A DNA stretch of 64,000 nucleotides from a virus. Below the pieces are notes generated by a model, which had not been told where the DNA came from, did no database searches, and saw only the letters and a program-made list of their open reading frames with translations. Shown in pieces: positions 11,158 to 48,313 of the stretch; position 1 is the stretch's first letter; each line of letters begins with the position of its first letter. Position numbers and translations under genes: made by a program. The stretch is from positions 17,818 through 81,817 of the IMG/VR virus record IMGVR_UViG_3300043436_001797; one strand, written 5' to 3'.

Positions 11158-11178
11158 TCTATAAATTCTATATATAAA

Positions 11179-12077: not shown

Positions 12078-12079
12078 TT

Positions 12080-12529
12080 ATGGAAAATAATGTTTTAAGA
12101 AGATCCCTTAAGACTGGATCACAACAATCACAGAGCGCGTCTTCTAGCAGCAAAGGTGCTGACATGGGGAAACTTGTTTCAGAATTTTTGGAAGCAGTAA
12201 CTTCTGTGCATAAAGCTCATCTTAAAATTACAGGTCCTGGTTCATATGCTGCACATACAGCAATGGGTGCATTTTATGATGAAATCGGAGATCTTGCTGA
12301 CTCTATTGCTGAGTCATACCAGGGAGTAACCGAGACGCTGTTAAATATTCCAGCTACTCAACAAGCTTCCTTTACTAGTGCGGGAGACTGCGTAAACTTC
12401 TTGAATGACCTCTACCAAAAGGTGGATGCTGCTCAAAAAGCTTGTGCTTATTCTGAGATTATTAATGACTTAGACAATGTCAAGTCACTGATTAACGGCA
12501 CTAAGTATAAACTAATTTTCTTGAAATAA
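12080..12529 (+). CDS. Dps/ferritin-like protein (DUF5856-like)
   Basis: HKAHL...GSYAAHTAMGAFYDEIGDLADSIAESYQG matches the Dps H-x-G-x-H...D-x-x-A-E ferroxidase pattern; C-terminal KYKLIFL. Confidence 0.75.
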   Translation: MENNVLRRSLKTGSQQSQSASSSSKGADMGKLVSEFLEAVTSVHKAHLKITGPGSYAAHTAMGAFYDEIGDLADSIAESYQGVTETLLNIPATQQASFTSAGDCVNFLNDLYQKVDAAQKACAYSEIINDLDNVKSLINGTKYKLIFLK

Positions 12530-12574
12530 TTTGGAAGTTCTAAAAGGATTTCCTATATTAACTATATATTTTTG
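12530..12574 (+). promoter_or_regulatory. Candidate promoter upstream of the 12602 gene
   Basis: TTTG-N20-TATATTA (12530-12560) and TATTTTTG (12567-12574, TAnnTTTG) in an intergenic gap. Confidence 0.5.
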
Positions 12575-12601
12575 TTTGTAACCCTTTAATTTTTTAAAAC
12601 A

Positions 12602-31022: not shown

Positions 31023-34000
31023 ATGGCAAAGAAACAAGGTAATACTCCAGAATCTGGAATCAGTTCTAACTCAGGATCTTTTACCAAAGGTCTTGTAAGA
31101 GACTTTGATGAAAACTTTGATCCCGAAAGTTCATGGCCATACGCACGTAACGCTTCAAACAATTCTAAAGAAGGTGATGTTGGTGTCTTAGGTAATGAAC
31201 CATCAAACTCTGCATGCGGAGTTGCTCCCTACACAGTTATTGGTAGAATATTTTTATTCAATGCTTACTGGGCAATATTTTCTACCGATGATAGCAACTC
31301 TGAAATAGGTGTGTATGATGAGTCCCTCTGTCAATATAGAACTGTAGTTAACCAAAAATGTCTAAACTTTAGGAAACTAAATCTAGTAACAGGGGTAGCT
31401 AAAGAAAACTTTGATTGTCAGTGGGCGGTTTATTTTGCTGATGGTAGAAATCCAGACAGATATATAAACATAGGTAACCCCGCACTGTGGCCAGATACAC
31501 CATACCTTGGTAATAACTATTATCAAAATAATGTACTGTGGCCAGGTGTACAGTGGATACAAGACTGTCAAATTATAAACAGTTGTACAATATGTGAAAA
31601 TACCAACAGTTTAGATTGTGAAGAAATCAGAATCAATAAACTTGTTAATACCCCTTGTGTTAAAGTTAGCGCTAAAGAAGGTGGCGGTAACCTAGCTAAT
31701 GGTTCTTATGTTGCTTTTATAGCATACTTAGAAAATGGTCAGAAGTATGGAGACTATACATCACCCTCTAACGTACAACCTATATTTGATCACGACAATC
31801 TTGGTGGTTCAATTACTGTAGAAGTATCTAATCTTGAAAATAAGTCTTTTACTGAGTTTGAACTAGTTATTGCTGCGACAGTAAATGGGCAAACTGTAGC
31901 AAGAAGAATAGGTCAATATGCTTGTTCCGATGGACCTGTATTGGTATATCTTGATAGTATAAACGACTCGTTACCTACGGTACCTCTTGAGTTACTTCCT
32001 ATAAGATCACCATTGTATGAAACATCAGATTCTATTTTTGAAACTGGAAGCTACCTTCTTAAAATAGGTCCTCGTACAACTTTTGATTTTAACTATCAAC
32101 CACTGGCAAATCAAATTGAAGCTAAGTGGGCAATTGTAAGATATCCGTCAGATTATTACAAGAGTGTAGGTAGCAACACAGGTTATATGCGTGATGAGGT
32201 ATATTCATTTTTTATAAGATGGATTTACGCAACAGGAGAAAAATCTAAGTCATATCATATTCCTGGAAAGATTGGAGATAGTAAGGATACTACACAATCT
32301 ATAGGTATATACTCAGCAGAACTAGAATACGGTTTTGAAAAAGAAAATACAGCTACTATAACTAGTACGACTACATATTCTTTATCAGATGGTGGTGTTG
32401 TAATAGCTGAAGGTACAATGGGTTACTGGCAATCTTCTGAAAAGTATCCAGATAGAAATCCTGAGGTTTGGAATTCTAGTTATGATCCTAGAATATCAGG
32501 TACAAGTCAAACTACATGGGATCTTTGTAACCAACCTATCCGACATCATAAGATGCCGGAAGATGTTATTTCTAATGATTTAAAATATACAAGAGCTGTT
32601 ATTTTAGATTCTGCTGGTAATATTGTTCCATCACCTAAGTACACTGGAGCTACTCACATTCAGATAGTTGGTGTAAAGTTTTCAAACATTAAACCTCCTG
32701 TTTATATAGACGATGATGGAAATACTAAGGTTATTCCTGGTATTGTTGGTTATGAGATTCTTCGTGGATCACGAACAGGAAACAAGTCCATTATAGCAAA
32801 GGGTATTATAAACAATATGCGGAGCTATACTGATATTGATGATACAGAAGGTCTTTATGCAAACTATCCGTTTAATCCTGTAAAGGATATAAGTGGAACA
32901 ATTGATCCTACACTATCAATTACTCCGGTTAATGGTAATGGTAGTAATTACACCCCTGTAACAGAATCACATGTAAAGAAAAACTTTTTAACCTTTCATT
33001 CTCCGGACACTAGTTTCTATAAACCTTTCTTAGCTGTAAAAGAATTAAAACTTTATACAGAGTTAGGAAATCCTGGTAATGCAAAAGGAACATTTGAACC
33101 AGTACCCGGACATCCCAAGGAAAAACTTTTAAGCAATGTTTCATCTACAACAGCAATGATACTTGGTATAGCTGAAGCAATCTTTGCAATGAAAGGTGAA
33201 GAAGGATGGGAAGGAGAAGAATCAAGATCACTTAATATAGGTCTTGGTGGTACGATGGTTATGCCAACCCCAGGAGGAGTCTTTGGTGCACCTAGTTTGA
33301 TGTATCCAACTTTCGGTGTACCTGGTGGTAATGTGTATGAAGGACTTAAACAAGCACAGGTGCTTGGACAAACAGGTCTCAGTGCATCAGCTCAAGGATT
33401 GACAGGTGGTTTAATGTCATTAGGTGGAGCGGGTATGGTGACAGGTAATAATGCTCAGTTATTTTACATGGGCGATAAACTTGCATCAAATGGGTACGCA
33501 CTTGCAGGGGGATATATGGGACCTACAAGAAGAAGAATGCACAAAGAAGGTGTTATGTCAGGTCTTCCACTTATAGCAAATATTTTTGCGGTTGTTCCTA
33601 CATTGTATACACTAGCTACAAACGCAGCATCTAAAACAATTGACCTAATATATGCTTTTGTAAAAGCTCGTAGTTATGTCTATAGATTTATTTCCCACGG
33701 GTTTTTACATAAAGACAATTTACCGCCAGCATCCAGAAGGCATTATATAAATGATGTCGCATATTTAAATGAAGGTTTTAATATGTTTGGTGGGTATAAG
33801 ATCAATAATATTAACAGATTTAAAACTACAGTATTAACTACCGCAAATGATGTGGCGTTACCTAACATTGTAGATAATACAGGTGTAAGCATTAGCAGAA
33901 ATGTAAGTTCTAATGTTACAGCTGCTACAATGGATCCATCGCTTACAGGGAAACCGGCTAGTGCTCCTGTAGCAGAACTTATAAAAACTATATCTATAAC

Positions 34001-36284
34001 AGCATCTTGTTTTTATGCTGGTTTAAAAATTAGATTTAGAAACCAATACGGACAATTAGATCAGATTAGACAAATACCTTTACCATGTCCGCATATTGTT
34101 AATAACAATAAACCTATTCCGGATTCTGCTATTGATGCTCCAGTAGGGTCCACTGTTACTATATTTAATGCTAATTACTCAACTGATGTTTTATTTGGAG
34201 GTGACACATATATAGGCAGATACACAGAAAAGAATACTTTCTTTTATTTCTATGATTGGTTATATGGTCAACCTGATGAAACCCCATTTAATTATAGGGC
34301 TAAGTACTTGGGTTTATATCCTCGTTACTTTGCAGACTTTAGTAGATATGATATAGATGGGTTAATACCCACAATGCTGCAAAAGTTTAATCAACCTAAT
34401 ACATGGGATACACCCGCTAATCAAGTTAACTTAGAACAGGAATCTACACCCGTAGGTTTACTAGGATTAGTACGTATGGCTTTTAATAATGTATTACCTA
34501 ATTTAATTGGTAATGCAGATGATAATAGTTATAGCAGCGGCGATAATAAATTTTCATTTTCTATAAGAAGAGGTTTCATGTATCTCTTTAGCTCAGGTGT
34601 AAGGGATTTCTTTGTAGAATCTGATATTAACGTAGACCAAAGAGACTGGGGTGAACTTGATGAACAAAAACACTTTGAGGTTCTTTCTGACCTTAAAACA
34701 TTGTTTGATACTAGAATTATTAGATTTGGTAACTACTACAAGATTGACCCATCTATTTCAGTATCAAAGCTTTACTACAGTGTAGTATCTTGGGGTAACA
34801 TGCAAGATAGAGACTATAATCCTATGGTATCTGCTCTATGTTATAAGTACTTACCTAACAGAGTTATCTACTCGTTACCTACAGTTCTTGAAGGAAAGAA
34901 AGATGGTTGGAGAATATTCTTACCAAACAACTATAGAGACTTTAAGTCTAAGGTTACTGCTATTAGACCTATAGGTAAGAACGGAGCATTGATGCTCTTT
35001 GATAGAGATAGTCCCGTACAGATTCAGGGTACCGAAACTCTTGAGTCTGATATGGGAACTAAGATTACAGTAGGTGATGGTGCACTGTTTAATAAACCGT
35101 TACAAGCACTTACAAACACAGACCAATCTTATGAGTATGGATCTTGTCAAGATAAGTTTTCAATTCTAAATACACCAGCAGGTATCTACTGGGTATCTCA
35201 GTCTCTCGGAAAAATATTTTCAATAGGAAGCGGACTAGAAGAGATATCTGCTTCTGGTATGCGTTGGTGGTTTAGTAAGTTTTTACCTTACAGAATACTA
35301 GAGGATTTTCCAAACTTTGAAGCTACAGATAATCCGGTAATTGGTGTAGGTTGTCAAGCTGTTTATGATAACGACTTCTTGATGATTTACTTTACTAAGA
35401 AGGACTATGAGCTTAGAAAAGATTTACCTGCGGGAATCAGTCTTACATATGTTGGTGGTGTAGATTTTATCTTGAACACAGGTGGTTCTTCGGGATCTTC
35501 TGGAGATAAAAATAATACAAGACCTAATGCTGCTAAAATTAAGTTAGGAGATCCTAATTACTTTAACGATGTATCATGGACAATATCATATGACCCTAAG
35601 TCAAAAGCTTGGATCTCTTTCCACGATTGGCATCCGACAATGATGATCCCTAGTAACCAGAACTTTATAACTATTAATGATAATACTTTCTGGAGACATA
35701 ATAGTCGCACTGATAGTTTCTGTAACTATTATGGGGTTGATTATCCATTCCAGGTAGAGTATGTGGTAGATACAGGACAGACAGTAAATACTTTAAAGAG
35801 TATAGAATACTTACTTGAGTCATATGTATACGATATAGATGGTATTGATAGATTCCAGCTTTTAGACTTTAACTTTGATGAACTTATTGTATATAACTCT
35901 GAACAAGTTTCTGGACAACTTAATCTCAATATGGCACCTAAGGATAATCCTTTTGCTAGATTGAATTATCCTGCTGTAACTGGTGCGGGGATAAATATTA
36001 TGTACGAGAAAGTAGAGCAGAAGTTTAGAGTAAATCAGTTCTGGGACGTTACTGCAAATAGAGGCGAGTATGATGTAAATATTCAAAGACCGATTTGGTT
36101 AACTGGATGGGATGGATATAAGCGATCTTTGAATCCTGCTAACTTGAATTATGCTAAGTCAGTATTTGAAAGAAAGAAGTTTAGACATTACTACAACAAC
36201 GTTCTGTTTACCAGAAAGGTTTCGGGTAATGCTAAAATGCTAATGAAGATATCTAACAACAAAAACTTGCTGTCACCGCGATGA
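31023..36284 (+). CDS. Tail stabilization/muzzle protein
   Basis: 1753 aa; N-terminal F.KGL..D...ARNA, GYMRDEVYSF, FGGDTYI, C-terminal WTISY...WISFHDW.P; position before the cargo genes. Confidence 0.75.
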   Translation: MAKKQGNTPESGISSNSGSFTKGLVRDFDENFDPESSWPYARNASNNSKEGDVGVLGNEPSNSACGVAPYTVIGRIFLFNAYWAIFSTDDSNSEIGVYDESLCQYRTVVNQKCLNFRKLNLVTGVAKENFDCQWAVYFADGRNPDRYINIGNPALWPDTPYLGNNYYQNNVLWPGVQWIQDCQIINSCTICENTNSLDCEEIRINKLVNTPCVKVSAKEGGGNLANGSYVAFIAYLENGQKYGDYTSPSNVQPIFDHDNLGGSITVEVSNLENKSFTEFELVIAATVNGQTVARRIGQYACSDGPVLVYLDSINDSLPTVPLELLPIRSPLYETSDSIFETGSYLLKIGPRTTFDFNYQPLANQIEAKWAIVRYPSDYYKSVGSNTGYMRDEVYSFFIRWIYATGEKSKSYHIPGKIGDSKDTTQSIGIYSAELEYGFEKENTATITSTTTYSLSDGGVVIAEGTMGYWQSSEKYPDRNPEVWNSSYDPRISGTSQTTWDLCNQPIRHHKMPEDVISNDLKYTRAVILDSAGNIVPSPKYTGATHIQIVGVKFSNIKPPVYIDDDGNTKVIPGIVGYEILRGSRTGNKSIIAKGIINNMRSYTDIDDTEGLYANYPFNPVKDISGTIDPTLSITPVNGNGSNYTPVTESHVKKNFLTFHSPDTSFYKPFLAVKELKLYTELGNPGNAKGTFEPVPGHPKEKLLSNVSSTTAMILGIAEAIFAMKGEEGWEGEESRSLNIGLGGTMVMPTPGGVFGAPSLMYPTFGVPGGNVYEGLKQAQVLGQTGLSASAQGLTGGLMSLGGAGMVTGNNAQLFYMGDKLASNGYALAGGYMGPTRRRMHKEGVMSGLPLIANIFAVVPTLYTLATNAASKTIDLIYAFVKARSYVYRFISHGFLHKDNLPPASRRHYINDVAYLNEGFNMFGGYKINNINRFKTTVLTTANDVALPNIVDNTGVSISRNVSSNVTAATMDPSLTGKPASAPVAELIKTISITASCFYAGLKIRFRNQYGQLDQIRQIPLPCPHIVNNNKPIPDSAIDAPVGSTVTIFNANYSTDVLFGGDTYIGRYTEKNTFFYFYDWLYGQPDETPFNYRAKYLGLYPRYFADFSRYDIDGLIPTMLQKFNQPNTWDTPANQVNLEQESTPVGLLGLVRMAFNNVLPNLIGNADDNSYSSGDNKFSFSIRRGFMYLFSSGVRDFFVESDINVDQRDWGELDEQKHFEVLSDLKTLFDTRIIRFGNYYKIDPSISVSKLYYSVVSWGNMQDRDYNPMVSALCYKYLPNRVIYSLPTVLEGKKDGWRIFLPNNYRDFKSKVTAIRPIGKNGALMLFDRDSPVQIQGTETLESDMGTKITVGDGALFNKPLQALTNTDQSYEYGSCQDKFSILNTPAGIYWVSQSLGKIFSIGSGLEEISASGMRWWFSKFLPYRILEDFPNFEATDNPVIGVGCQAVYDNDFLMIYFTKKDYELRKDLPAGISLTYVGGVDFILNTGGSSGSSGDKNNTRPNAAKIKLGDPNYFNDVSWTISYDPKSKAWISFHDWHPTMMIPSNQNFITINDNTFWRHNSRTDSFCNYYGVDYPFQVEYVVDTGQTVNTLKSIEYLLESYVYDIDGIDRFQLLDFNFDELIVYNSEQVSGQLNLNMAPKDNPFARLNYPAVTGAGINIMYEKVEQKFRVNQFWDVTANRGEYDVNIQRPIWLTGWDGYKRSLNPANLNYAKSVFERKKFRHYYNNVLFTRKVSGNAKMLMKISNNKNLLSPR

Positions 36285-39200
36285 AAGTTTCTAAGACAGG
36301 TTATAAGAAAAACTCTAAGGATAAGAACGAACCATCATTGCTTATCCCCTCTAATAGAATTACTATGAAGGGTGTAGAGTTTCCCGTGTACGGAATAGAT
36401 GATACAGGATACTCTCAAATGATGTATCCTGGTTTAGATTACTCGTTTCCAGGTAGTTATGTTTATGAACTTCCTATGGCAAAAGAAGGTGGATACATAC
36501 TTCCGGGTAGATATAAAAATCCAGAAGGTAACTGGTTGAATAAATATCAGTCAGATAAAAAATCAGGTCAGGTAAAAAATTACTGGACATGGAATCCTAA
36601 AGCTACTTCCGAAAGAGATAGTATTCAAAATATTGCCGGCAATATATTAAACTATGAAATTCTAAGAGGTGGTCCAGGGGGTAGCCCGCTCACTTACTAC
36701 AGTGATCCTGAGTATATGAATACCTTGATGAATGATATATATCCGCAAGTTAAAAAAATGATGCCTAATGCTACTCCCGTAGAAATGGGGGAAGCTATGG
36801 ATCTTATTTTTAATAGTGGTTGGGATAAGAGCAATAAAAAAATATTAGTAGATCCTAGAGCATATGCTATACAAGAATACTATAGAGTACATGATAAATC
36901 CAAACTAGATAAAGAAGGAAACTGGGCAGGTAGAAAAGCTACCCCCGGTACATTTGATAGTGAGTATGCTAACACTGTTGGTAAACTTTCTGAAAATGAA
37001 AGAAGGATTATGATGAATAAAGGGAGAGACTGGTTTTATCAACATAGAGCTCCTAAAGGATCAACCTGGGATTTAAAAACGCAAGGTGCTTATCCAGACT
37101 ATGGAGCTACCTGGTATGGAAGAATATGGAATACTAATGATTACGCTCCATTTAATCCGAATAATCCTAAATTTATTTATCCGTATAAAACAGGCGGTGA
37201 AAAATGGTTAGATAAGTATCAAGGTAAAACTAGCGCTAGTGAGGTAAGTTCTTTAAAAGAAGAATCATATAGAACACCTTGGTGGAATCCTGAAAATTCA
37301 TCTGAATGGAATCCAGCATGGACATCAGATCCAATTAGACAGAATGCACAAGCAGAGTTTCCGGGTACATATGTATTACCTACTGTAGAGATTACAGATG
37401 AAAAACCGCAAAGGTTTAAAGATCAAGAAACTGCTGCCGTAGTTAGACAAGTTCTTCCAGATAGAACTATCTTATCAGCATCAGATGATCCAGAGAAAAC
37501 ATATGAGGATTTTATAAATAGTTCTCGTAACTATCGCAATGCAAAATTAAATGATACTCTAATAGATATAACTGATAAACCAATGGGATGGTTTACTTTT
37601 AATACAATCCCAGGAGAGAAATACACAGATATATTAGGAAATAACTATATAGAAGTAAATAGGGGTGGAACAGGTAAACCAGAAGACTATGCTAAAAACT
37701 GGAAAACCAGAATGCAGGATCCTAAAGATACTTTTAGAAATAGTGATTATGCTGAAGACGCTGGAAGTTATTACCATAGTAAAGATATTCCAGCATTCTA
37801 TGGTATAGAAAATAATAAGTTTAAAGTTGGAAACCCTGGAGATTTTAAAGATGATACAGTAATTGTTCCAGTAAGAAATAGCACAACTCCATATAGTAAA
37901 GTCGAAGTTGAAAAAGGACTGTTTAAAGATAATTTATATACATATGATAAAGACGGAAATAAAATATGGAACTTACGGAATAAACAAAAGTTTTTAGTAC
38001 ATTCTCCGGTAACAAATAGAACAATCTTTATATCTAAGGACAGTTACGAAAATCAAAATTCCAAAGAAAGTTATGCCACAACAAAAAAATCACTAGATGA
38101 TTTTTCAAAAAATAATCCAGATGCTTATATCATATCTCTAGATGAAGGTAGATTTCGTGCCTACATGAATTCACCAGAAGGTTTAGATGATGAAAGTTTT
38201 AAGACCTGGAATGCATTTTCTGGTACAGTACTACATAATTATTTAGAAGGACTCGGTAAGGAAGCAGTAGATCATGGTCCCGGTACATCGGGTTCTCCTT
38301 TATATTCTCCTGTAGGTGATGAAAGATATGGATATAATCTAGGTATTCTAAAACAAAAACATGGAGGATGGCTAGATAAATATCAATCTAAGACTACATC
38401 TGGTTCTGTTTCTAAATCTGGTCCAAGAATTGAAAACTTACCGCTTCAGAAGGTTGATAACAAACTAGAAATAGCATACGATGGAAGCACGGTATACCTA
38501 CGTAAAATAGGTGAAGATAAGTTTACTACACTTAGTCCAGAAAAGTCTAAAGCTTTTATTCAGAAGTATCAAGAGCATATACCACCTAGTTATTCTAAGG
38601 TTGAAGAACAGAAGAAAAAGCAAGCAGCTTATAATGCAAAGGTAGCTGCTGAAAAGAAAGAGATGGATGAGCTTCTTAAGTACACTCCATTAAAACTTAC
38701 TAAAGAAGAAAAGGATAGAGTTCTAAAAGAGTCTAAAGATGCGCGAGCTGAACTAGCTGAGAAGAGTTGGTTAGACACAGCATGGGATGCTACTAAAAGT
38801 GCATATGAATCTTTACCAGATGTTTCAGATTTTACTAACGCGGTTAAAGGTGCATATGAGTCTTTGCCTGATGCAGAAAATGTAATTAAGTTGATGAATT
38901 TATCAAACGAGGCAACAAAACTAGCAGCAGCTTATGCTTGGAATTATAAGATACCTGAAAATGATATACCTGGTTTAAGAAGTTTCGGTGAGCTTTCACC
39001 AAAAGAAATATATCAAAGTTTTGAAAATAGATTTATAGAAAAAAACTTTGGTGAGGATACACCAACAGGTGAGTCAAATATTGAAGAGCTTAATCTGATG
39101 TCAGAAGAAGATGTAACTTCTGGAACTTCAGATATGGAACAGTTAAATAAAAGTAGAGCTAAGTACGGACCACAGCGATTACCCGCAAGAAGAGATTCTA

Positions 39201-42200
39201 GAGGTAATATGTTACCATCATATCAACCTATTGGTGGAAATGATTCACTAGCTAGATTTAGCTACACATTTAACAATGATATTCTAGGTGCTGATACTTT
39301 ACCTCCTACTCACTTTGTTACACCTAAAGTAAAAGAACTTACAGGAAATCCATCTAGACCAAGAAAATGGGAGAACGCATTTGCTGTAGGTGATTTCTTG
39401 AGAGATGCTGATATAACTGAAAATCAGTTTTATCACCCAGATAAATATTATGTGGGTACTTCTCTTAGCGCACTTCGTAATAGTGACCTAGGTATAAAAA
39501 GCAATAAACTCATAAGCGCTAGTAATCAACTACTTAATGATCCTGAAAAATACTGGGCGGTGTATAAATGGGATCCTGAAAATCCTGCAGCAGCATGGGT
39601 TAGGTATATGAAAACTAATGAGATTAAGTCTAAGAAAGATCAGTTAGAAAAACAAGGATGGCATCTTGATATGCCTGTATCAGGTCAACATAGATTTGAT
39701 GATGTTGATTGGGAAGGCAAAGGTTCAGACACAGGTTATAAAGCAGATTCAGAATGGGTACCGCTTAAAAAAGGTGCTAAAAACATAAAGAGTCAAAAAG
39801 ACGTAAATCATACTTATATACCACAGGGAACTAAAAAAGGTCAAGATAAAACATCCTATAATTTATTCTCTGGTGGATCTATAACTTTTGTATGGACTGA
39901 TCCTGAGACTAATGAAAAACTTGCGTCAACAGTAGCCGGTTCAGTTTCTGACATGAAACAGTATGGTGAAAAACTTAAAAAAGATTATGGATTAAAAGAA
40001 GGTGATCTTGATATCATATACCATGATACAGGATCCTACTCCGCTAAACCAGCAGCTAAAAATGGTACATTATACTACGATCAATGGAAAGACTTTAACG
40101 CATATAACAAAGGCTATTCCGGCGCAGCACTGATAGTACCTACACAAAATTGGTTAGAGAACTGGACACCTAATAAAAAAGAAGGAGGACAATTAGATAA
40201 GTACCAATCTGAGAATACAGGTGCTATAAAAAAAGGATGGCATCAAAAAGTTTATAATGATCCTATTGCATTTGCAAAAGCTAATAAAGCTTTTAACGAT
40301 AGTCTTAATCTTAGCAAAAGAAGTTACGAGCTTCTTAAGGATATAGCTCCTAACAGCTCATATAAAAGTAATATTCCCTATGAAGATGTACATTGGACAG
40401 CTGATGGACCAGGTGGTTATTTTATAGATAATGTTGACTTTGGTAGGCAGTTTTTAGGTTTAAATTACTTAACCGATACTAATTTTAGAATACCTGGTAC
40501 AAAAGAGCAACTTATCTTAGAAGAAGCTTTTTCAAAAAGAATAAAACCAATAGGTTTTAATACAACTGACGTTCCAGTACCTATTTATAAACTACCAACT
40601 GAAGAACCTGTGTATGAAGAACTTAAAAACTTACCTTATCTAGATGCAAAATTGGAGCGTCCTGATTTTAACTTAGATATAGGTAAACCACCGGTAAAGT
40701 CTCAGGGTATTAGAATTAGACCTATGATGACTGCTGATCAAGCTACTAGTACTGGTCAGTATCAATCCGGTAAGTATATGTGGGATCCAGAAACAAAATC
40801 CTGGAAAGTCAAAATGCTAAGTCCTGAAACTCAACAAGAAAACAGAAAAGAGGTTAGAATAGGGATTAAAAAAAATGGTGGATGGCTAGATAAATACCAA
40901 GATGGTAAAGAAGTAAATAAACCTGTTAGCGCAACATGGTCGGATGAGTTTGGTACTTACATGCTTCCCGAAGTAACTGTAAAACCATCCATTAGTCCTG
41001 AAGCAACTCGAGCAATACTGAATAGAGAAGCGGGTATGTCTATTTCGCCTGCTCCGTCTGCGGTTGATAGAAGAGTAGCACAAACTCAGTACATGTTATC
41101 TAACCCACTTGATGCGCTTGGTCATTACTCTAGATATGGTTATGTTCCGCAAGGAAACCTGGGTAACTATGGTATGAGAGAAAAATCAAGTCCTGTTGGT
41201 CAATTACTAATGGACTTCAATCCATACAACTGGGCAAACGCTGCATACAGAGCTGCTATAAGAGGTGGGGATCCTGATACGTATACAACAGTTCCTGGTG
41301 CTATTAATATGGGTGCAGATTTAGCTGAAGCACTTCCTGTTATTTCTGAACTAGGTCCTTTGCTTAAAGGTGCTAAATCTGCGACAGGTGAAGCAGGTAA
41401 ATATCTTACAGCAAAAACTCCTTTAAAGTATACATACAGATTAAATCCCGAGGCTAGAGGTAGTGTATTCAAACCCTGGGATAACAGCATGGGATACCGT
41501 GTGGTTAATCAAGAAGGTTATGATGATGCCGTAAAAAGTTTTCTGGTAAGATCAAATCCAAAAGGAGATAATACATTATTTTCAAGACCTACAGGTTTTC
41601 CTTCTTTTGCTAAAGGAAAACCTAGCAAGAACTTTTTTAAGACGGATAATACACCTCATTATATAATGGAAACAGATATTCCACTGTATGCAAGAGGGGA
41701 AGCAAATCCAGTTACAGGGATACCGATTAAAAGTAGTCATGGAGCAGCAAGACCTATTGATCCTATAACCGGTGAAACCCTAACTTCATTTCCAATAGAG
41801 GATCTAAACGCTATATATAGCGCACAACCCCATTGGTTAAAAGGTTATCAGCGTGTTTGGCAATCACCTAAAAATATTCAAGAATTAGGTAATTTAACAT
41901 TAGGAAAAAACATTGCTACATCGGGAGCCTTTAATAGAGGTGTCTATGAGTTGCCAGATTATCCTGGATATTTGTTAAAATATGAAGATACGGATTTAGT
42001 TAGAAATATGGCTTTGCGTGATATTGATGATCTAAATTTTGCCGATCTTCAAATGAATCTAAACTCTTCAAATGTAGGAAAAGTAATCAAACACTTTAAA
42101 AAACAAACTCATCCTATTGATCCAATGCTTGCAGGTAGAGATATGGAAGGATATCTGCTGCGCAGGATGCAAGGTAAACCACTAGCTACACTACAATTAG

Positions 42201-43216
42201 ATAGATTAAAAGATATTCCAGAAAGTGCTTTTATTCAGTATGCAAAAGATTATGATAATTTAGTTCAACAGAAACTAGCAATGGATAATTACGGGCATAA
42301 TGTACTTTATGATCCAGAAGATGAAGTGTTTAAATTTATAGATTTATCTCCGGAGGCTAACTCTAATATGAGTGATTTTTGGAGTGAACATGTGATTGAT
42401 AATATAAACTCTAAAATGCCTAGAGAAAAACAACTAACAGGTATTAAAGGAGCTATTCTTAACCAAATAGATAATAATGTAAACATTAATATTGAAAAAG
42501 CTATGAAGGATCTTCCTGAAGATGCTGATTTGGAATATGCTGACAAATTAAGAATTGGGATGGAGTTATTGGGTCAAGCTAAAAAGAATAGAGTAAAAAG
42601 AGAATTAGAAAAAGCAGGTTATAAAAAACTAGGTGGGTGGCTTGATAAATATCAAATAAAAGGTGAAGTAACTCCTCCTGCTAATCTCCCTTGGATTAAT
42701 GGTGCAAGCATACCTCAAAAGCAATCGGTAGAGCAACAAGTTAATGCTTGGTTAGGTGAACCAATGAAAAGAGCTGCAGAGGAAGCGGAGAGAAGAGCTG
42801 AACAAGGGGAAGATGCAGGTGACTCTTTTAGACACTCTAATGCAGGTAGATTAACTCGTGAAGAGCTAGAAAAAAAGTTTCCTGAACTTATGTTGTATAC
42901 AGGTATTCCACAAGTTGCATCATTCTTAGGAGCTACAGCTTTAGGTATTGGTCATGAGGTAGTAGCACCTAATAGATCTCCGGATTATTCTTGGTGGGAT
43001 ACAGCTAGAGAAGCAGGAGAAGACATTATCAACAATACCATAGGAGCAACGGGTTTATTTTCAGAAGAAGATCTTTATAACATGTATCTGAACAACCAAT
43101 TACCTGATGGATATGGTAAAGGAAATATGTACTTCAAACAGAAAAAAGGAGGAGAAATGTCCCCAAGTATGGGATATTTTAACTATATTGGTGGATATAG
43201 GGGTATGTTGCCTTAA
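36281..43216 (+). CDS. Modular virion cargo polyprotein (2311 aa) with effector-like domains separated by GGWLDKYQ linkers
   Basis: ATGA overlap with the muzzle gene. Six linker copies. Lysozyme-like, ART-like, kinase-like and DUF6973-like motifs in separate modules. Cargo role inferred from position. Confidence 0.7.
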   Translation: MKVSKTGYKKNSKDKNEPSLLIPSNRITMKGVEFPVYGIDDTGYSQMMYPGLDYSFPGSYVYELPMAKEGGYILPGRYKNPEGNWLNKYQSDKKSGQVKNYWTWNPKATSERDSIQNIAGNILNYEILRGGPGGSPLTYYSDPEYMNTLMNDIYPQVKKMMPNATPVEMGEAMDLIFNSGWDKSNKKILVDPRAYAIQEYYRVHDKSKLDKEGNWAGRKATPGTFDSEYANTVGKLSENERRIMMNKGRDWFYQHRAPKGSTWDLKTQGAYPDYGATWYGRIWNTNDYAPFNPNNPKFIYPYKTGGEKWLDKYQGKTSASEVSSLKEESYRTPWWNPENSSEWNPAWTSDPIRQNAQAEFPGTYVLPTVEITDEKPQRFKDQETAAVVRQVLPDRTILSASDDPEKTYEDFINSSRNYRNAKLNDTLIDITDKPMGWFTFNTIPGEKYTDILGNNYIEVNRGGTGKPEDYAKNWKTRMQDPKDTFRNSDYAEDAGSYYHSKDIPAFYGIENNKFKVGNPGDFKDDTVIVPVRNSTTPYSKVEVEKGLFKDNLYTYDKDGNKIWNLRNKQKFLVHSPVTNRTIFISKDSYENQNSKESYATTKKSLDDFSKNNPDAYIISLDEGRFRAYMNSPEGLDDESFKTWNAFSGTVLHNYLEGLGKEAVDHGPGTSGSPLYSPVGDERYGYNLGILKQKHGGWLDKYQSKTTSGSVSKSGPRIENLPLQKVDNKLEIAYDGSTVYLRKIGEDKFTTLSPEKSKAFIQKYQEHIPPSYSKVEEQKKKQAAYNAKVAAEKKEMDELLKYTPLKLTKEEKDRVLKESKDARAELAEKSWLDTAWDATKSAYESLPDVSDFTNAVKGAYESLPDAENVIKLMNLSNEATKLAAAYAWNYKIPENDIPGLRSFGELSPKEIYQSFENRFIEKNFGEDTPTGESNIEELNLMSEEDVTSGTSDMEQLNKSRAKYGPQRLPARRDSRGNMLPSYQPIGGNDSLARFSYTFNNDILGADTLPPTHFVTPKVKELTGNPSRPRKWENAFAVGDFLRDADITENQFYHPDKYYVGTSLSALRNSDLGIKSNKLISASNQLLNDPEKYWAVYKWDPENPAAAWVRYMKTNEIKSKKDQLEKQGWHLDMPVSGQHRFDDVDWEGKGSDTGYKADSEWVPLKKGAKNIKSQKDVNHTYIPQGTKKGQDKTSYNLFSGGSITFVWTDPETNEKLASTVAGSVSDMKQYGEKLKKDYGLKEGDLDIIYHDTGSYSAKPAAKNGTLYYDQWKDFNAYNKGYSGAALIVPTQNWLENWTPNKKEGGQLDKYQSENTGAIKKGWHQKVYNDPIAFAKANKAFNDSLNLSKRSYELLKDIAPNSSYKSNIPYEDVHWTADGPGGYFIDNVDFGRQFLGLNYLTDTNFRIPGTKEQLILEEAFSKRIKPIGFNTTDVPVPIYKLPTEEPVYEELKNLPYLDAKLERPDFNLDIGKPPVKSQGIRIRPMMTADQATSTGQYQSGKYMWDPETKSWKVKMLSPETQQENRKEVRIGIKKNGGWLDKYQDGKEVNKPVSATWSDEFGTYMLPEVTVKPSISPEATRAILNREAGMSISPAPSAVDRRVAQTQYMLSNPLDALGHYSRYGYVPQGNLGNYGMREKSSPVGQLLMDFNPYNWANAAYRAAIRGGDPDTYTTVPGAINMGADLAEALPVISELGPLLKGAKSATGEAGKYLTAKTPLKYTYRLNPEARGSVFKPWDNSMGYRVVNQEGYDDAVKSFLVRSNPKGDNTLFSRPTGFPSFAKGKPSKNFFKTDNTPHYIMETDIPLYARGEANPVTGIPIKSSHGAARPIDPITGETLTSFPIEDLNAIYSAQPHWLKGYQRVWQSPKNIQELGNLTLGKNIATSGAFNRGVYELPDYPGYLLKYEDTDLVRNMALRDIDDLNFADLQMNLNSSNVGKVIKHFKKQTHPIDPMLAGRDMEGYLLRRMQGKPLATLQLDRLKDIPESAFIQYAKDYDNLVQQKLAMDNYGHNVLYDPEDEVFKFIDLSPEANSNMSDFWSEHVIDNINSKMPREKQLTGIKGAILNQIDNNVNINIEKAMKDLPEDADLEYADKLRIGMELLGQAKKNRVKRELEKAGYKKLGGWLDKYQIKGEVTPPANLPWINGASIPQKQSVEQQVNAWLGEPMKRAAEEAERRAEQGEDAGDSFRHSNAGRLTREELEKKFPELMLYTGIPQVASFLGATALGIGHEVVAPNRSPDYSWWDTAREAGEDIINNTIGATGLFSEEDLYNMYLNNQLPDGYGKGNMYFKQKKGGEMSPSMGYFNYIGGYRGMLP
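36527..42655 (+). repeat. Six dispersed copies of the (K-x-GG)-W-L-D-K-Y-Q linker
   Basis: 36527 GNWLNKYQ; 37187 KTGGEKWLDKYQ; 38357 KHGGWLDKYQ; 40178 KEGGQLDKYQ; 40871 KNGGWLDKYQ; 42626 KLGGWLDKYQ. Confidence 0.92.
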
Positions 43217-43247: not shown

Positions 43248-44897
43248 ATGAAAAAAGAATTTTTAAAAATGGCTGGTGTAAAAACAGAGCAAGAGTTCTA
43301 TCGTAAGTATCCTAATGAAAAGGATTTCTTTGAAGCTCATCCAGATGCTTTGAAAAAACTAGCTCGTGGTGGTGAGGCATATCCACAAACTGCTACTATG
43401 GATAACTTCTTTAGTTACGGGGTACCAGTTCCACCTACTTACTATGCACATGGTGGTGCATTCCCTATGGCACAATCAGAGGAACAGTTCTTCTCACCTT
43501 TCTATGGAAACGTACCTAACCCATACAACAAAGCTATGGGTGGAAGCTCTGAAGCGTATCCTCAGTCAATGTCTTTCCCATATGGAAACACTGGCAGAAG
43601 CACACACTTTATGATGGAAGACGGTGGGGATATGCCAGAAGAACAAACTCTACCAAAGATGGGAGTCAATGGTAAACTCCTAGAGTTTGTAGGTACTGTT
43701 AAAAATACAGCTGCTAATAAACTAAACAGCAATCTTGCTAAATACGGTAAGGTAAAGAACCCAGAGCAGTATGAGTTTGAGAAAGCTAAATGGGGAGGTA
43801 ATCTAAAAGAATATCAGACTAAGGAAACTGCAGGTGGTATTGACGATGTTGAATTGGTTGCTAAAAAAGGTCCAATTTTTGAACCGCTGAATCTTCCTAA
43901 AGTTGATACTAATTCTGATGTGCCAGGAACCGCTAATTACTATGGAGAATATTCTCAAGGATATGGATCACCCTCTTTTACAAATTGTTTTCCTGGAAAT
44001 CCTAACTGCAATCAAGTATACGGTCAACTTCCTCCAGAATACTATAATGATATAGACTACCTGCGCGGTAGAAGAAGACCGTATAGGGACTTTGATATCC
44101 GCGGTAAAGGTATGTTTGGTAAATATAGATCGACTGGTTGGTTGAAAGATGAGTATGGTTTAGAAGGACTGAGACAAATGGGGATGACAGACATGCAGGA
44201 AAGTAATCCTAAATGGTGGCAGTTGTTAAAGCGTCCTACTAAAACATACATTTTTGACAGACAATATCAGCAACAGGGTCCTAACGGGGAGTACAAATAC
44301 AATCCAGTAAAAATTTACGATAAAGATGGAATGCCTGATCATAAAGCTCAAAACGCTTATGAGAATATGCTTAAACCAGGAAATGAAAAGGATATGGGAT
44401 TCTTTGCTAGGATGTTTCATAAATCAGGTAATGTAACTGGTCAAGGAAGAGATGTAATGCCAGGAACACCTTCAGATCCTAATGCTGAGATGTCTCCTCA
44501 AATGACAAGTGCATTTGATTATAAAGGATATAATCCAAATTACTCTGAAGCAAGAAATCAGATTTTCCAAAATAAAAGACAAAAAATAGGAAAGCAGCTA
44601 GATAAACTTTATCAAAAAAGAGCCGATATGGAGGATATGGGTCTTACTATTTCTGATAAAGATGAGCGTAAAATGAAAAGACTAGGTAATAGATTTAACC
44701 GCAAAGGAACTGGTAAAGGAGTAAACTATAGTTTTGATACTTATGAAGAACCTACACCTGCTCCTGGATTTGCTTATGGTGGATATACAACATATGCAAA
44801 AGGTGGCTCATACAACGCAGGAGATGTCGTAGATATGACTCCTGAAGAGTTGCAGAGATTTATTGAAATGGGCGGTCAAGTAGAATTCTTAGACTAA
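43248..44897 (+). CDS. Putative virion cargo protein with multiple xxGG motifs
   Basis: LARGG, YAHGG, KAMGG, MEDGG, AKWGGNLKEYQ, FAYGG, YAKGG, EMGG; internal repeats GG(x)EAYPQ. Confidence 0.65.
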   Translation: MKKEFLKMAGVKTEQEFYRKYPNEKDFFEAHPDALKKLARGGEAYPQTATMDNFFSYGVPVPPTYYAHGGAFPMAQSEEQFFSPFYGNVPNPYNKAMGGSSEAYPQSMSFPYGNTGRSTHFMMEDGGDMPEEQTLPKMGVNGKLLEFVGTVKNTAANKLNSNLAKYGKVKNPEQYEFEKAKWGGNLKEYQTKETAGGIDDVELVAKKGPIFEPLNLPKVDTNSDVPGTANYYGEYSQGYGSPSFTNCFPGNPNCNQVYGQLPPEYYNDIDYLRGRRRPYRDFDIRGKGMFGKYRSTGWLKDEYGLEGLRQMGMTDMQESNPKWWQLLKRPTKTYIFDRQYQQQGPNGEYKYNPVKIYDKDGMPDHKAQNAYENMLKPGNEKDMGFFARMFHKSGNVTGQGRDVMPGTPSDPNAEMSPQMTSAFDYKGYNPNYSEARNQIFQNKRQKIGKQLDKLYQKRADMEDMGLTISDKDERKMKRLGNRFNRKGTGKGVNYSFDTYEEPTPAPGFAYGGYTTYAKGGSYNAGDVVDMTPEELQRFIEMGGQVEFLD

Positions 44898-44902: not shown

Positions 44903-47900
44903 ATGAAAGTTAGAATCACAAAAGCTCCTAAACTTAGAAAGTATCAAACGGATGTTACACCTGGTCAAGTTATGCCTGCTGCAACACCGTCAGACTATAA
45001 CAACTATAGAGATGCCAGCTGGTTTCAACCATGGGAAGGAGTAGATATGAGTCAGTTTCCCAATGGCATAGATCCAATGGGAGGAGAGTTTACTACGGGT
45101 AAACAGAGATCTCTATATTATACCATAAGAGATGGGAAACAAGAACTCTACCCACCACATCAGAAAGTTGCTCATGCAATGGATCACAGGGGAATCTCAG
45201 GTATACGTTTTTATCAACGTCCTGGTGATGATGGAGCTGGCAGCAATGGTGGTGATGCAGGATATGGTGACGATGCTGAAATGGGAGATTCTTATATGGC
45301 AGATCCTTATGCAGAAAAGAATGCGTATAGGGCTAAAATGCGGGATGAGTACAATCAATTAAGTACAGAACCGCAAGAAGGTTTTGAGACATGGTTGCAT
45401 AATAAGGGAGATTATCTAAATTATTCGGGGTTATCCGGTGATTCAAATCAAACAAGTTTAGAGCAGAAAGATCAAGGTCTTACTGATTATAGAACTGGTA
45501 TGCCGGATTTTAAGTCTGGAAATGGTAGTGGTGCTGGTAGTGGTTTTGGTAATTCTGGTGGCACCGGTTCTACTGGTGGTGCTGGTTCTGGTCCTGCTGG
45601 TCCTACTGGTACTGGTTCTAGTAGCGGTGGTGGTGGTGATTCAGGATCTGTTAATACTATTGGTGGAGGAGGAGGGGGAGGTGATTTGAAATCTGCTGGT
45701 ATGCCGCAAGATCAAGGTTTTCACGGAGTTGTAAAAGAAAAAGGTCGGTCAAAGCTCGGTAAGTTCATTAGAGGTTTAGGACCTCAAAAGGGAATGGATG
45801 CTTACATAAACAGACAAAATGCTAAAGACTTTGTTACGGGATTTGCTGAGTATAAAGGTAAGGTTGATATGGATAAGGAAGCTGTCAAAGGTTTCCATAT
45901 GTCGCAACCTATTGCCGCATCTACCCAGGGTACCTTTGATCCCAACAGCATGAACAACTTTACTCCTGGTATGCTAAATACAGTACCGTCTACAGGAGAT
46001 TTTGCAATGGCACCTAATATGCCTATGGGTGCATATGGTGGTCAGTTTATGGCATATGGTGGTAGAGTGTTTAATCAGGTAGCACCAAATGCTTTACCCG
46101 ATAGAACATCTGAACCTAGAATAGCAGTATCAAACACACTGCAACCAGTACCTAGAGAGCTTGCTAATATCGAAGCAGAGAAAGATGAGACTATCTACTT
46201 CTTAAACAATGGTGGTCTTCCTGCTCATTATAAAATTGGTGGTCAACCTCACAGCAAGGGAGGAACTCCTTTGAATGTTCCCGAAGATAGTTTTGTATTT
46301 AGTAAAGCGCTGAAGATTAAGGATAAAAGACTGTTTCCTTATTTCGATGTAACTAAACCTACCAGCTTCTCAGACATTGCTAAGAAGTATGACATAAATA
46401 AATTTAGAAAGATACTAGCTGACCCGGATACAGACAAGCTGCAAAGAGAAACTGCAGAGAAAATGATTGCTAACTACAACCTTAAGTTGGGTATGTTAGC
46501 TTTAGCACAAGAATCTACAAAAGGATTTCCACAAGGTTTACCTATGATAGCTGCACCGTTTACTGCGGTTAATGCTATTGATCCGGAAATGATTTTACCT
46601 ACGCCACCTCAGTCTGCTGAGATGCCGGAAGAACAATTTATGGAACAAGAGATGCCCGCTTATAAATTCGGAGGAGCTATGAGAGTTAGAATTAAATCTT
46701 TACCTAGATATCAGTCAGATCTTGCTGGTGCTAGTGTTGCTGATGATATGATGTCAGATGCTGGTTTATCTGACCAGACTTACGTACAAACCCCACCAGC
46801 AAATATACCCCCACCTCCACCTGTTGCTGTTGTTACACCTGCTACACCAGCAGCACCTCCTGCAGCAGCAACTGCAGCTACTCCTCCACCTACTATTGTG
46901 GTGAATGGTGTTACGATAGATACAAAGACTAATAAACCTGTAGCTAAGTCTGCTCCCGCTGCTAGTGGTAAGAAAGCAGCTAAAAGTGCTGCGGGTACAT
47001 TTAATTTTGATGTAGATGTTATGGAAGGTAATCCTGACTTTTGGCAGGGTTATAATGATTTGGTCGCAGCTGGTACTATTAAACCAGAACTAGCTATAGG
47101 TTTTGAAGATGCTAGTGTTCGTCAGCGAGAGAGTAAGCAAGGTCGTAGACCAGGTACTGCAAATATATATGGTGATAGAGATATTCATAAAGGTTCTCTT
47201 TATGAGGACTTTAAGAAAAGACAGGCGTGGTATTTTCAAAATAAGAAAAACTGGGATCCTGAAAATAAAGCAGATGTAGAAGATTTTCAAAGAGAGTATT
47301 GTAAAAAAGCTGCAGAGTATGGTATGAAGGGTTGTTACTTTAATACCAAGGATGTAAAAGACTCTAAAGGTAGAATTATACAAGGGACTACGTTTGACGG
47401 TCTGTTTGGTGAGCACACTTTTAATGCTCCAGGATTTAATAAAGCTGAAGCAAAACCAGAACCTCAACCACAACCCCAACCAGAACCAGAAAAAAAACCA
47501 GAACCTATCAAGGTTAATCCTTTAGATATACCAGAGGATTATTCTCGTAGAAGCGGTTATTTCCCTCAGGATCTTATAAACCTTTCTGCAGCTTTAGCTC
47601 AAAGAATTACTGTACCTGATACATGGTATGCTCCTTTACAGTTTAAAGGTGTAGATCCTGCGTATTTGGTACCAGACTATAGTCCAATTATGGAAGCTGC
47701 TAATATTAGCACTCAGGGTGTTAATGCTTATGGTTCTCGTCAAAGTGCAGATGCTTCACTTGCTCTTATTCAAGGTAAATCAGCAAGACCTGCAGCTGAA
47801 CATAATCTAGCAGTTGCTAATGCTAATGCTGGTATTTACAACAATGCTCAGCAGATTAACGCACAGATAGCAAATCAAAATGCTATGTACAATAATCAGT

Positions 47901-48313
47901 TAGCTCAAACAGACTTTGATGCTAAAGCGCTTTATGAGCAAAACAGAATCCAAGCTCAGAATAAGAAGAGAGCGGATCTTGCTAGACTTGTAAACACCGC
48001 GATTACCAATAGAGCTACTGCAGAAACTCTTAGCGATGCATACTCTGCATACTTCCATATAGATCCTACTCGTGGTGGACACGTTGAATTCTTCAAAGGG
48101 GCTGATCAGATTGTACCTAATGAAAATGCAGATATGGGTGATCTTGCAATACTTGATAAGCAGCTTACAGATCTTGGTTACAGCAATGAGGACAAGAAAG
48201 AAATTCTTAAATCTGCACTAGCTAGTAAGTATGCTACAAAGAGTACTAGGAATTCGTATCTGCCTGATTATTCGCAACTTATGTATCCGTTTAACATGCA
48301 GCAGGGTTCTTAA
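44903..48313 (+). CDS. Putative virion cargo/ejection protein (1136 aa)
   Basis: NIEAEKDE...GGQPHSKGGTP...FVFS motif seen in crAss-type cargo proteins; Gly/Ser and Pro/Ala low-complexity tracts; PG-binding-like V..FQ...DG.FG..T; N/Q/A-rich helical C-terminus. Confidence 0.65.
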   Translation: MKVRITKAPKLRKYQTDVTPGQVMPAATPSDYNNYRDASWFQPWEGVDMSQFPNGIDPMGGEFTTGKQRSLYYTIRDGKQELYPPHQKVAHAMDHRGISGIRFYQRPGDDGAGSNGGDAGYGDDAEMGDSYMADPYAEKNAYRAKMRDEYNQLSTEPQEGFETWLHNKGDYLNYSGLSGDSNQTSLEQKDQGLTDYRTGMPDFKSGNGSGAGSGFGNSGGTGSTGGAGSGPAGPTGTGSSSGGGGDSGSVNTIGGGGGGGDLKSAGMPQDQGFHGVVKEKGRSKLGKFIRGLGPQKGMDAYINRQNAKDFVTGFAEYKGKVDMDKEAVKGFHMSQPIAASTQGTFDPNSMNNFTPGMLNTVPSTGDFAMAPNMPMGAYGGQFMAYGGRVFNQVAPNALPDRTSEPRIAVSNTLQPVPRELANIEAEKDETIYFLNNGGLPAHYKIGGQPHSKGGTPLNVPEDSFVFSKALKIKDKRLFPYFDVTKPTSFSDIAKKYDINKFRKILADPDTDKLQRETAEKMIANYNLKLGMLALAQESTKGFPQGLPMIAAPFTAVNAIDPEMILPTPPQSAEMPEEQFMEQEMPAYKFGGAMRVRIKSLPRYQSDLAGASVADDMMSDAGLSDQTYVQTPPANIPPPPPVAVVTPATPAAPPAAATAATPPPTIVVNGVTIDTKTNKPVAKSAPAASGKKAAKSAAGTFNFDVDVMEGNPDFWQGYNDLVAAGTIKPELAIGFEDASVRQRESKQGRRPGTANIYGDRDIHKGSLYEDFKKRQAWYFQNKKNWDPENKADVEDFQREYCKKAAEYGMKGCYFNTKDVKDSKGRIIQGTTFDGLFGEHTFNAPGFNKAEAKPEPQPQPQPEPEKKPEPIKVNPLDIPEDYSRRSGYFPQDLINLSAALAQRITVPDTWYAPLQFKGVDPAYLVPDYSPIMEAANISTQGVNAYGSRQSADASLALIQGKSARPAAEHNLAVANANAGIYNNAQQINAQIANQNAMYNNQLAQTDFDAKALYEQNRIQAQNKKRADLARLVNTAITNRATAETLSDAYSAYFHIDPTRGGHVEFFKGADQIVPNENADMGDLAILDKQLTDLGYSNEDKKEILKSALASKYATKSTRNSYLPDYSQLMYPFNMQQGS

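Follow-up and report, generated by a model that had tools for sequence, protein, structure and literature searches.

What is one hexapeptide doing, six times over, in a protein of 2311 amino acids (aa) from an uncultured crAss-like phage? The question is raised by an open reading frame (ORF) of the IMG/VR virus record IMGVR_UViG_3300043436_001797 (81.8 kb, ~68% complete), of which positions 17,818 to 81,817, a stretch of 64,000 nucleotides called the window here, were analyzed. The ORF runs from 36281 to 43216 on the + strand and its ATG overlaps the stop codon of the upstream muzzle gene by 4 nt. Its product (P0001) would, in the reading to which we give an even chance of being right, be a modular cargo protein that is packaged in the virion and injected into the host, and in which the peptide W-L-D-K-Y-Q acts as an uncut docking or loading handle. 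The ORF and its six peptide copies (tags) are located as follows:

36281..43216, + strand: whole ORF (P0001), 2311 aa, zero cysteine; modular protein in cargo position
36527..36550, + strand: tag copy 1, degenerate (GNWLNKYQ)
37193..37222, + strand: tag copy 2 (GGEKWLDKYQ)
38363..38386, + strand: tag copy 3 (GGWLDKYQ)
40184..40207, + strand: tag copy 4 (GGQLDKYQ)
40877..40900, + strand: tag copy 5 (GGWLDKYQ)
42632..42655, + strand: tag copy 6 (GGWLDKYQ)

The tag follows the pattern (K-x-GG)-[W/Q]-L-[D/N]-K-Y-Q, with core hexamers that begin at residues 85, 309, 697, 1304, 1535, and 2120 (distances between core starts of 84/224/388/607/231/585/192 aa). The sequence contexts of copies 1 to 3 are NPEGN-WLNKYQ, KTGGEK-WLDKYQ, and KHGG-WLDKYQ, and those of copies 4 to 6 are KEGG-QLDKYQ, KNGG-WLDKYQ, and KLGG-WLDKYQ. 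Copy 1 is without the Gly-Gly and has N in place of D, copy 2 has an insert of two residues and in copy 4 Q replaces W; four of the six have an exact K-x-GG in front of the hexamer. From the composition of P0001, 0.00023 copies of the core are expected by chance as compared to the six seen, and shuffled versions of the protein contained at least one copy in 4 of 20,000 shuffles. A six-frame scan of the whole window gave no copy of the strict motif outside P0001. The six linker copies announced in a preliminary description of this DNA are therefore borne out, and the module sizes given there (an ~82-aa leader and six modules) agree with the measured segments once the linkers are subtracted. Synonymous sites differ among the six copies (GGA/GGT/GGC/GGG, CTA/TTA/CTT/TTG, AAA/AAG, TAT/TAC, CAA/CAG) and, as a family of DNA repeats, the tags show 75–91% identity over 32 nt. 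Since the synonymous codons differ, the tag appears to be conserved at the level of the peptide and not of the DNA, and a DNA-level repeat as origin of the motif was ruled out on the same grounds.

The position of the tag in related proteins is more informative than its number. Relatives of P0001 were collected from a large protein index (37 of near-length and 24 shorter), and in these 61 family proteins the core motif was counted 127 times: 97 copies are internal, 22 make up the final six residues, and 8 come immediately after the start methionine. The terminal copies have a distinct last residue, with Lys in 20 of the 22 (WLDNYK-COOH) vs 1 of the 105 others. The leucine is present in 126 of the 127 copies and the tyrosine in 122; the tryptophan (127/127) was required by the search pattern. 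The tag logo shows Gly-Gly on one or both flanks. Additionally, the motif is C-terminal in 18 of 142 further leader proteins, and the exact motif is the chain end in 20 of 36 IMG/VR loci. The terminal tag was seen in nine versions at the nucleotide level; as the loci concerned were selected by a pattern that demands the amino acids, this variation is not taken as a sign of selection. Tagged proteins of 334–1887 aa are also harbored by a second lineage of phages that has no leader; they start with MKGWLDKYQEGG, MNNWLDKYENGG or MEKWLDKYDDGG and end in ...LDQLxNFTNYNxxxxGGWLDKYQ. After the same module end (KKxMGG in module 1, YKKGG in module 5) WLDKYQ is sometimes present and sometimes absent; the hexamer is thus separable from the seam that precedes it, because homologues of modules 1 and 5 keep the GG end with or without it. 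Seams of the basic-x-GG type without a hexamer are also found in P0001 itself, at residues 70–71 (AKEGG) and 2290–2291 (KQKKGG).

These observations suggest the following arrangement. A cargo protein in the C1 slot, that is the slot of the crAss001 cargo protein C1, would consist of an ~80-residue conserved leader, a cassette zone of exchangeable unrelated modules and a short conserved tail. Every joint would be a general basic-x-Gly-Gly seam, to which this lineage adds an exposed W-L-D-K-Y-Q, often followed by x-Gly-Gly. The hexapeptide would be a short linear docking or loading handle that is not cut and stays on the protein, and it would clip the string of modules, or modules that are separately encoded, to a repeated partner within the particle. 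An uncut handle is favored because the tag is found at chain ends and co-occurs with an N-terminal domain of the next gene. Likewise, an exposed docking epitope is suggested rather than a scissile bond, since chain ends of both kinds retain the peptide as the joints do, its W, L, and Y are near-invariant and it is flanked by Gly-Gly on one or both sides. That both chain ends should keep the tag has an evident reason for an exposed handle and no obvious reason for a scissile site.

The best candidate for the partner would be the small domain with which the cargo protein encoded next begins, with the portal and the scaffold as alternatives. The ORF at 43248 starts with MKKEFLKMAGVKTEQEFYRKYPNEKDFF...KKLARGG, a small domain of the form FLKxAGV..E.EFY..P.E, and among loci L001-L085 this FLKxAGV domain stands directly after a chain-end tag in 22 of its 25 occurrences. 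In the remaining 3, leader and FLKxAGV protein form a single reading frame without a cassette zone. Loci picked by the FLKxAGV domain alone had a tag-bearing upstream gene in 8 of 8 cases and a chain-end tag in 7 of 8. In eight leader loci that have no tag and are preceded by a muzzle-type gene, the next gene begins with a different N-terminus. The portal is brought in by crAss001 gp45, where the sequence AFGGWLNTQGG is the start both of the ordered, portal-bound segment 425–552, seen by cryo-electron microscopy (cryo-EM) according to PMC10172136, and of the Pfam CARG1 model. The next-gene domain and the GGWL portal segment of gp45 are leads to the partner of the tag.

A relaxed form of the tag (L-[DKRNE]-[KE]-Y-Q) occurs ten times in the window, always within + strand ORFs, and six of the ten lie in P0001. 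The others are in a scaffold candidate (one), at the N-termini of ORFs 10682 and 44903 (one each) and in ORF 43248 (GGNLKEYQ). In ORFs 10682–10993 and 44903–48313 an L-[KR]-K-Y-Q is found inside the first 16 residues: MKKKLKKYQSQGEV; MKVRITKAPKLRKYQTDV. Judging from these N-termini, the tag family may extend to other virion proteins. The scaffold candidate, a 407-aa ORF (5053–6276) between the portal and capsid genes, is acidic, Gln/Lys-rich and helical-looking with a basic C-terminus; it has zero PHROG or Pfam matches, is probably the scaffolding protein, and carries a single relaxed tag-like LLEKYQ at nt 6034.

What lies between the tags changes from one relative to the next. The segments of P0001 are the following:

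36281..36526, + strand: N-terminal leader, residues 1–82, with the AKEGG seam at 70–71; the part that is conserved throughout a very large family
36551..37192, + strand: module 1, residues ~91–304; shared by 12 near-length relatives at varied positions
37223..38362, + strand: module 2, residues 315–694; rare, homologues only in P0039 and P0043, after different modules
38387..40183, + strand: module 3, residues 703–1301; composite, extra breakpoints near 896–942 and 1136
40208..40876, + strand: module 4, residues 1310–1532; inter-tag in relatives (e.g., P0008)
40901..42631, + strand: module 5, residues 1541–2117; composite, breakpoints near 1593–1605, 1686–1757, and 1860
42656..43213, + strand: module 6, residues 2126–2311; then the KQKKGG seam (2286–2291) and conserved tail EMSPSMGYFNYIGGYRGMLP

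No single relative covers more than 37% of P0001. BLASTP gave 95 high-scoring segment pairs (HSPs) against 60 relatives and, from them, 128 informative ends (not forced by a chain end), of which 85 fall at most 20 residues from a tag, as compared to an expected share of 10.6%; as HSPs are not independent of each other, the binomial P of this coincidence is indicative only. The HSP ends away from tags concentrate inside modules 3 and 5, and these two modules therefore appear to be composite, with internal borders that carry no tag. Homology blocks often run from tag to tag in both partners (e.g., residues 88–294 of P0008, with tags at 89 and 287), and P0039 shows the order leader-M3-M2 vs leader-M1-M2-M3 in P0001. 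Cutting 72 tag-bearing proteins at their tags gave 223 segments in 107 clusters, 79 of them singletons (segments were counted only if of at least 60 aa, and some source proteins may be truncated by the end of their contig). With 38 members, the leader cluster precedes 26 different clusters. Altogether, these alignments strongly support a swapping of modules among the relatives, and the mosaic of swappable modules that had been proposed stands: the modules of P0001 recur among relatives in different orders and combinations. Module 1 is located in relatives anywhere from residue 29 up to residue 2088 and ends there in KKxMGG, module 5 ends in relatives in YKKGG without the hexamer, and modules 3, 4, 5, and 6 have a separate set of relatives each. 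The EMSPSMGYFNYIGGYRGMLP tail extends in many relatives to ...GGxKGWLDNYK at the chain end.

At E ≤ 0.001 the leader family comprises 3252 representative clusters, and at E ≤ 1e-10 it comprises 929; the 150 best listed are 112–3766 aa long. The leader (residues 1–90) is present in most relatives of P0001, usually at the N-terminus and internally in about nine. A stand-alone leader ORF of 78–87 aa was found in 25 of 49 IMG/VR loci, in a different phage context: these phages (L038-L063, e.g., L045:10001–10243) are of a smaller type, in which a chaperonin-like gene of 520 aa lies close by and a muzzle-sized neighbor is absent. In the fusions of L069-L071 (about nt 9992–13624) the leader joins the FLKxAGV protein in frame after ~110 residues, with no cassette zone or tag between them, and the ancestral 'NNM' start context is still recognizable.

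That P0001 belongs to the cargo of the particle is indicated by its surroundings and by its composition. The adjacent genes are:

31023..36284, + strand: upstream gene, crAss muzzle protein; Pfam PF25731 (crAss_MUZ), E 1.7e-27; gp44 synteny
43248..44897, + strand: downstream cargo gene, 549 aa; N-terminal ~41 residues form the small domain, GGNLKEYQ at nt 43803

PHROGs matches in the window comprise terminase and portal; Pfam matches upstream of P0001 comprise CrAss_Ring_1 and CrAss_Ring_2, with Crass_capsid further upstream. The portal is located at 2185–4947 and the capsid protein at 6306–7934. BLASTP relates crAss001 gp40, gp43, gp44, and gp47 to the window ORFs at 29432, 30106, 31023, and 51753, the last of these being a gene of the RNA polymerase (RNAP) block downstream of P0001. 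Because of the crAss_MUZ match and the gp40/gp43/gp44/gp47 synteny, P0001 occupies the slot of crAss001 gp45 (cargo protein C1), and the placement of the gene between muzzle and RNAP genes is confirmed. Additionally, P0001 has no cysteine in 2311 residues, the six post-muzzle ORFs (window 36281–64000) have 8 in 9204 residues and sixty relatives of P0001 have a mean cysteine content of 0.10%, whereas the ORFs between 12602 and 31020 mostly have 2.6–6.3%. This contrast fits a cargo that is threaded unfolded vs external tail parts that are possibly disulfide-stabilized. The N-terminus of phi4:1 gp040 is a homologue of the leader (44% identity, E 3e-6), and the annotation of gp040 lists it among virion structural proteins, 'based on experimental MS/MS proteomics analysis' (tandem mass spectrometry). 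Cysteine depletion, gene position and this annotation taken together, P0001 is most likely a cargo that is packaged in the particle and injected into the host.

Three other explanations of the tag have to be weighed. In the first, which we regard as unlikely, the tag is a protease site: the polyprotein would be packed whole and cut at the K-x-GG/WLDKYQ joints, in the capsid or after ejection, so as to release the modules, comparable to the GG-X processing of African swine fever virus and adenovirus or to the zincin processing proposed for polyvalent proteins. By our count Gly-Gly precedes five of the six copies in P0001, and the joints fall on module borders. Embedded peptidases have been proposed to process polyvalent proteins (Iyer et al., 2017, PMC5512222), and a preprint by Drobysheva et al. 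describes fused RNAP-block polyproteins as 'likely cleaved' and a gp65 with a zincin domain; the cleavage idea there concerns the RNAP block and is itself conjecture. A HEAFH sequence is also found at residue 681 of the ORF from 57308 onward. However, MPTase-PolyVal, C48, C39, S78, and S77 have 0 matches each in the 81.8-kb record, P0001 has no HExxH and the ORF from 57308 onward has no Pfam match. The search for a cognate GG protease gave 0 matches for PF02902 and PF03412 in the ~68%-complete record, adenain (C5) being outside this search. In the 61 relatives the tag forms the last six residues in 22 cases and follows the methionine in 8, where cutting would be pointless, and natural chain ends are never at the GG that precedes the hexamer; in this lineage they fall after the hexamer. 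Furthermore, the last residue of the tag is Lys at chain ends and Gln at internal positions, so a cut after the Gln would not recreate the natural end. The preliminary description had left the linker as a cleavage or loading site; no evidence of cleavage was found, and the terminal copies favor the second of these, a handle.

In the second, which seems quite improbable to us, the tag is a hinge or cap without any binding partner that separates neighboring modules and permits their unfolded threading through the tail, its conservation being partly due to recombination at a shared joint. The Gly-Gly on one or both sides of the motif, the threading that a cysteine-free P0001 fits and a module exchange exactly at the tag joints are all compatible with it. 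Nevertheless, a hinge needs neither the near-invariant W, L, and Y (with W required by the search pattern) nor a copy at the chain end, the synonymous codon differences leave only about 75–91% DNA identity over 32 nt for recombination, and the basic-x-GG seam is already a joint in relatives without the hexamer. The third, a host-directed peptide by which the module or chain would bind a host envelope or cytoplasmic protein after ejection, is very unlikely: colicin translocation domains do contain short Trp-containing epitopes within Gly-rich disordered regions, the tag is a short aromatic epitope between Gly-rich flanks and part of the family seems to act in the envelope since relatives carry peptidoglycan-acting modules (Phage_lysozyme2, Amidase_2, YkuD, NLPC_P60, PG_binding_1), but the co-occurrence with a phage-encoded domain and the GGWL segment at the portal of crAss001 suggest that the partner lies within the particle.

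The docking or loading handle has points of its own to answer, and the following weigh against it. Gly-Gly before the hexamer is typical of cut sites of several viral and bacterial proteases. The zincin-like HEAFH motif is in a co-encoded cargo ORF (57308 onward), and a protease gene could lie outside the ~68%-complete record. P0001 lacks a terminal tag (it ends in ...GGYRGMLP) and its first copy is degenerate; internal tags may be relics of formerly separate tagged proteins that became fused. The eight loci selected by the FLKxAGV domain are closely related (58–64% identity). The co-occurrence of tag and domain is confounded by shared ancestry and could reflect only a conserved gene boundary. 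Finally, crAss RNAP-block polyproteins are suggested to be 'likely cleaved' in the preprint by Drobysheva et al.

Regarding the modules, one part of module 5 resembles an enzyme:

41903..42505, + strand: minimal protein-kinase-like sub-domain of module 5, residues ~1875–2075

Its motifs are a Gly loop (GAFNRGVY), the lysine of LLKYE, a D-x4-N loop (MDNYGHNVLY) and FKFIDLS; the pattern GAFNxGVYEL / LLKYE / D-x4-N / FKFIDLS is invariant in 5 of 5 aligned sequences, with the invariant residues G113/G118, K131, D233, N238, and D252 of alignment A2 in this order. Against the PDB, a profile of this part matched three chains only, with E-values of 0.005, 0.047, and 0.048: those of NleH1, an OspG-type kinase, and NleH2. 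The alignments span the catalytic loop as well as the DxS segment. The Pfam scan of the members of the sub-domain alignment returned noise only and zero kinase families, and when relatives were sought in which the kinase-like part stands alone, one fragment, P0044, was obtained. A minimal kinase is a plausible assignment on the strength of these motifs.

Two of the other enzyme classes suggested earlier do not stand: for module 1, called lysozyme-like, a 13-sequence profile had its best PDB match at E 0.52 (cytochrome oxidase 6C) with Pfam noise only, and for module 6, called DUF6973-like, a 5-sequence profile reached E 1.6 at best in the PDB, with DUF6973 absent from the Pfam matches. The word effector is thus too strong for the modules, as one module only resembles an enzyme, the putative minimal kinase. 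The module 4 profile gave noise only against the PDB. The whole of P0001 had zero matches in Pfam and PHROGs, 0 phmmer matches in the PDB at E ≤ 10 and, by tblastn (whole P0001) and megablast (20 kb), zero matches among GenBank phages; module 1 alone as a query for related loci found zero relatives. For the ART-like class, the stretch ahead of the kinase-like part is covered by these whole-protein searches alone, which were negative. Module 3 contains a stretch that is rich in Lys and Glu and looks helical, and it has a short internal repeat at nt 38794–38873. Besides the peptidoglycan-acting modules named above, the relatives carry DUF2272, SET, DUF6321, and DUF5754 and one weak crAss_CARG1 match; none of their Pfam domains lies inside modules shared with P0001.

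Two further ORFs of the window are recorded here. The one at 57308–64000 is a large cargo ORF, open at its 3′ end, with the HEAFH of residue 681 (…YSDLYHEAFHAFTQ…) and no Pfam match; this HEAFH may correspond to the zincin domain that is reported for phi14:2 gp65 in the Drobysheva preprint. The other, at 21011–28720, encodes 2569 aa, of which 73 are cysteines; it contains a Fib_succ_major domain (E 1.7e-20), and its product is probably a tail fiber or receptor-binding protein.

How does this protein compare with known systems? The nearest by position is C1 of crAss001 (gp45, PF25725), which was found inside the particle by mass spectrometry and cryo-EM and of which only fragments were resolved (Bayfield et al., 2023, PMC10172136). 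Both genes are the first after the muzzle gene and precede the RNAP block, both proteins show Gly-Gly punctuation (SAYGG, FAEGG, KAFGG, NAFGG, and FAYGG seams in gp45), and the start of the portal-bound ordered segment, AFGGWLNTQGG, resembles the tag of P0001. On the other hand, gp45 has 842 aa as compared to 2311 in P0001, and it is P0001 that has six repeated tags and exchangeable modules. P0001 shares the slot of the C1 family; it shows neither CARG1 (absent at E ≤ 1 from P0001 and at E ≤ 10 from the 81.8-kb record, with gp45 itself at 2.3e-66) nor significant BLASTP similarity to gp45 (best E 0.088 over 24 residues) nor a transmembrane-like segment (maximum 19-residue hydropathy of 1.29 vs 1.73 in gp45). 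BLASTP of gp45 against three cargo ORFs of the window was also non-significant, and a weak CARG1-like alignment in 44903–48313 (E 2.6) is not relied on.

Polyvalent proteins are likewise large, with disparate domains, encoded by late or virion genes and presumably delivered together with the DNA (Iyer, Burroughs, Anand, de Souza, and Aravind, 2017, PMC5512222), and they have in common with the relatives of P0001 peptidoglycan hydrolases and other enzymes. P0001 has the several unrelated domains that characterize them, namely seven tag-delimited segments with unrelated sets of homologues. The zincin MPTase hub was not found (PF18818 with 0 matches in the record, no HExxH in P0001), whereas about 36% of polyvalent proteins embed an MPTase or another peptidase (PMC5512222). 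P0001 also differs in that its array is organized by a conserved leader together with a tag that recurs at junctions or chain ends, and the text of PMC5512222 mentions neither crAss phages nor a conserved linker ('crass' 0, 'linker' 0). The preliminary description had considered the architecture undescribed, which does not hold for virion-delivered multidomain proteins as such, since polyvalent proteins are published (PMC5512222), and holds for the junction peptide, which was not found in print. Polyvalent proteins and crAss cargo proteins are thus already known; a description of a conserved leader with a cassette zone of more than 100 types and a six-residue tag at joints and ends was not found in the literature searched, nor one of the tag by itself.

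The Cellulophaga phage phi4:1 gp040 and its phi17:2 homologue (NC_021788, NC_021798) share the leader, are cysteine-free and have many x-x-GG seams; gp040 differs by its size (895 aa), by being without the WLDKY hexamer and by its genus (Lightbulbvirus), and it is not known to lie in a crAss-type muzzle context. The kinases of the NleH1/NleH2/OspG type (PDB 4lrj, 4lrk, 4o96) align with the module 5 sub-domain at the catalytic loop, but they are bacterial proteins secreted by type III systems and not a domain inside a phage cargo protein. Polymorphic toxins, to which the array had been likened, have a conserved N-terminal trafficking part, variable distal modules and a C-terminal toxin tip with an adjacent immunity gene. 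The family of P0001 shares with them a conserved leader that precedes 26 different module clusters; the neighbors of P0001 are cargo and RNAP-block genes, and a toxin domain was not identified in the general Pfam and PHROGs scans.

How megadaltons of protein cargo are loaded and released in order in crAss-like phages is an open question, for which a six-residue tag with a candidate partner next door would provide a concrete, mutable handle on cargo loading and ejection. The module pool (107 clusters from 72 proteins) would represent a reservoir of proteins injected at the very start of infection. It is conceivable, as a tentative extension, that the Gly-Gly-flanked W-L-D-K-Y-(Q/K) is a portable virion-loading signal, and that a module which bears it at the N-terminus, at the C-terminus or at a joint is clipped to the next-gene domain or portal, packed and injected. 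If so, this group of phages could swap an injected kinase, cell-wall hydrolases, and many other modules cassette-wise, and foreign proteins could be packed into such phages. The T4 capsid targeting sequence and the cargo-loading peptides of encapsulins are short conserved chain-end peptides with flexible linkers, common to unrelated cargo, and the T4 sequence is removed by the prohead protease. The likeness would be one of working only, as the peptide of the P0001 family is also internal and repeated and its removal is not seen, but as a portable loading signal it would be the phage counterpart of the encapsulin cargo-loading peptides.

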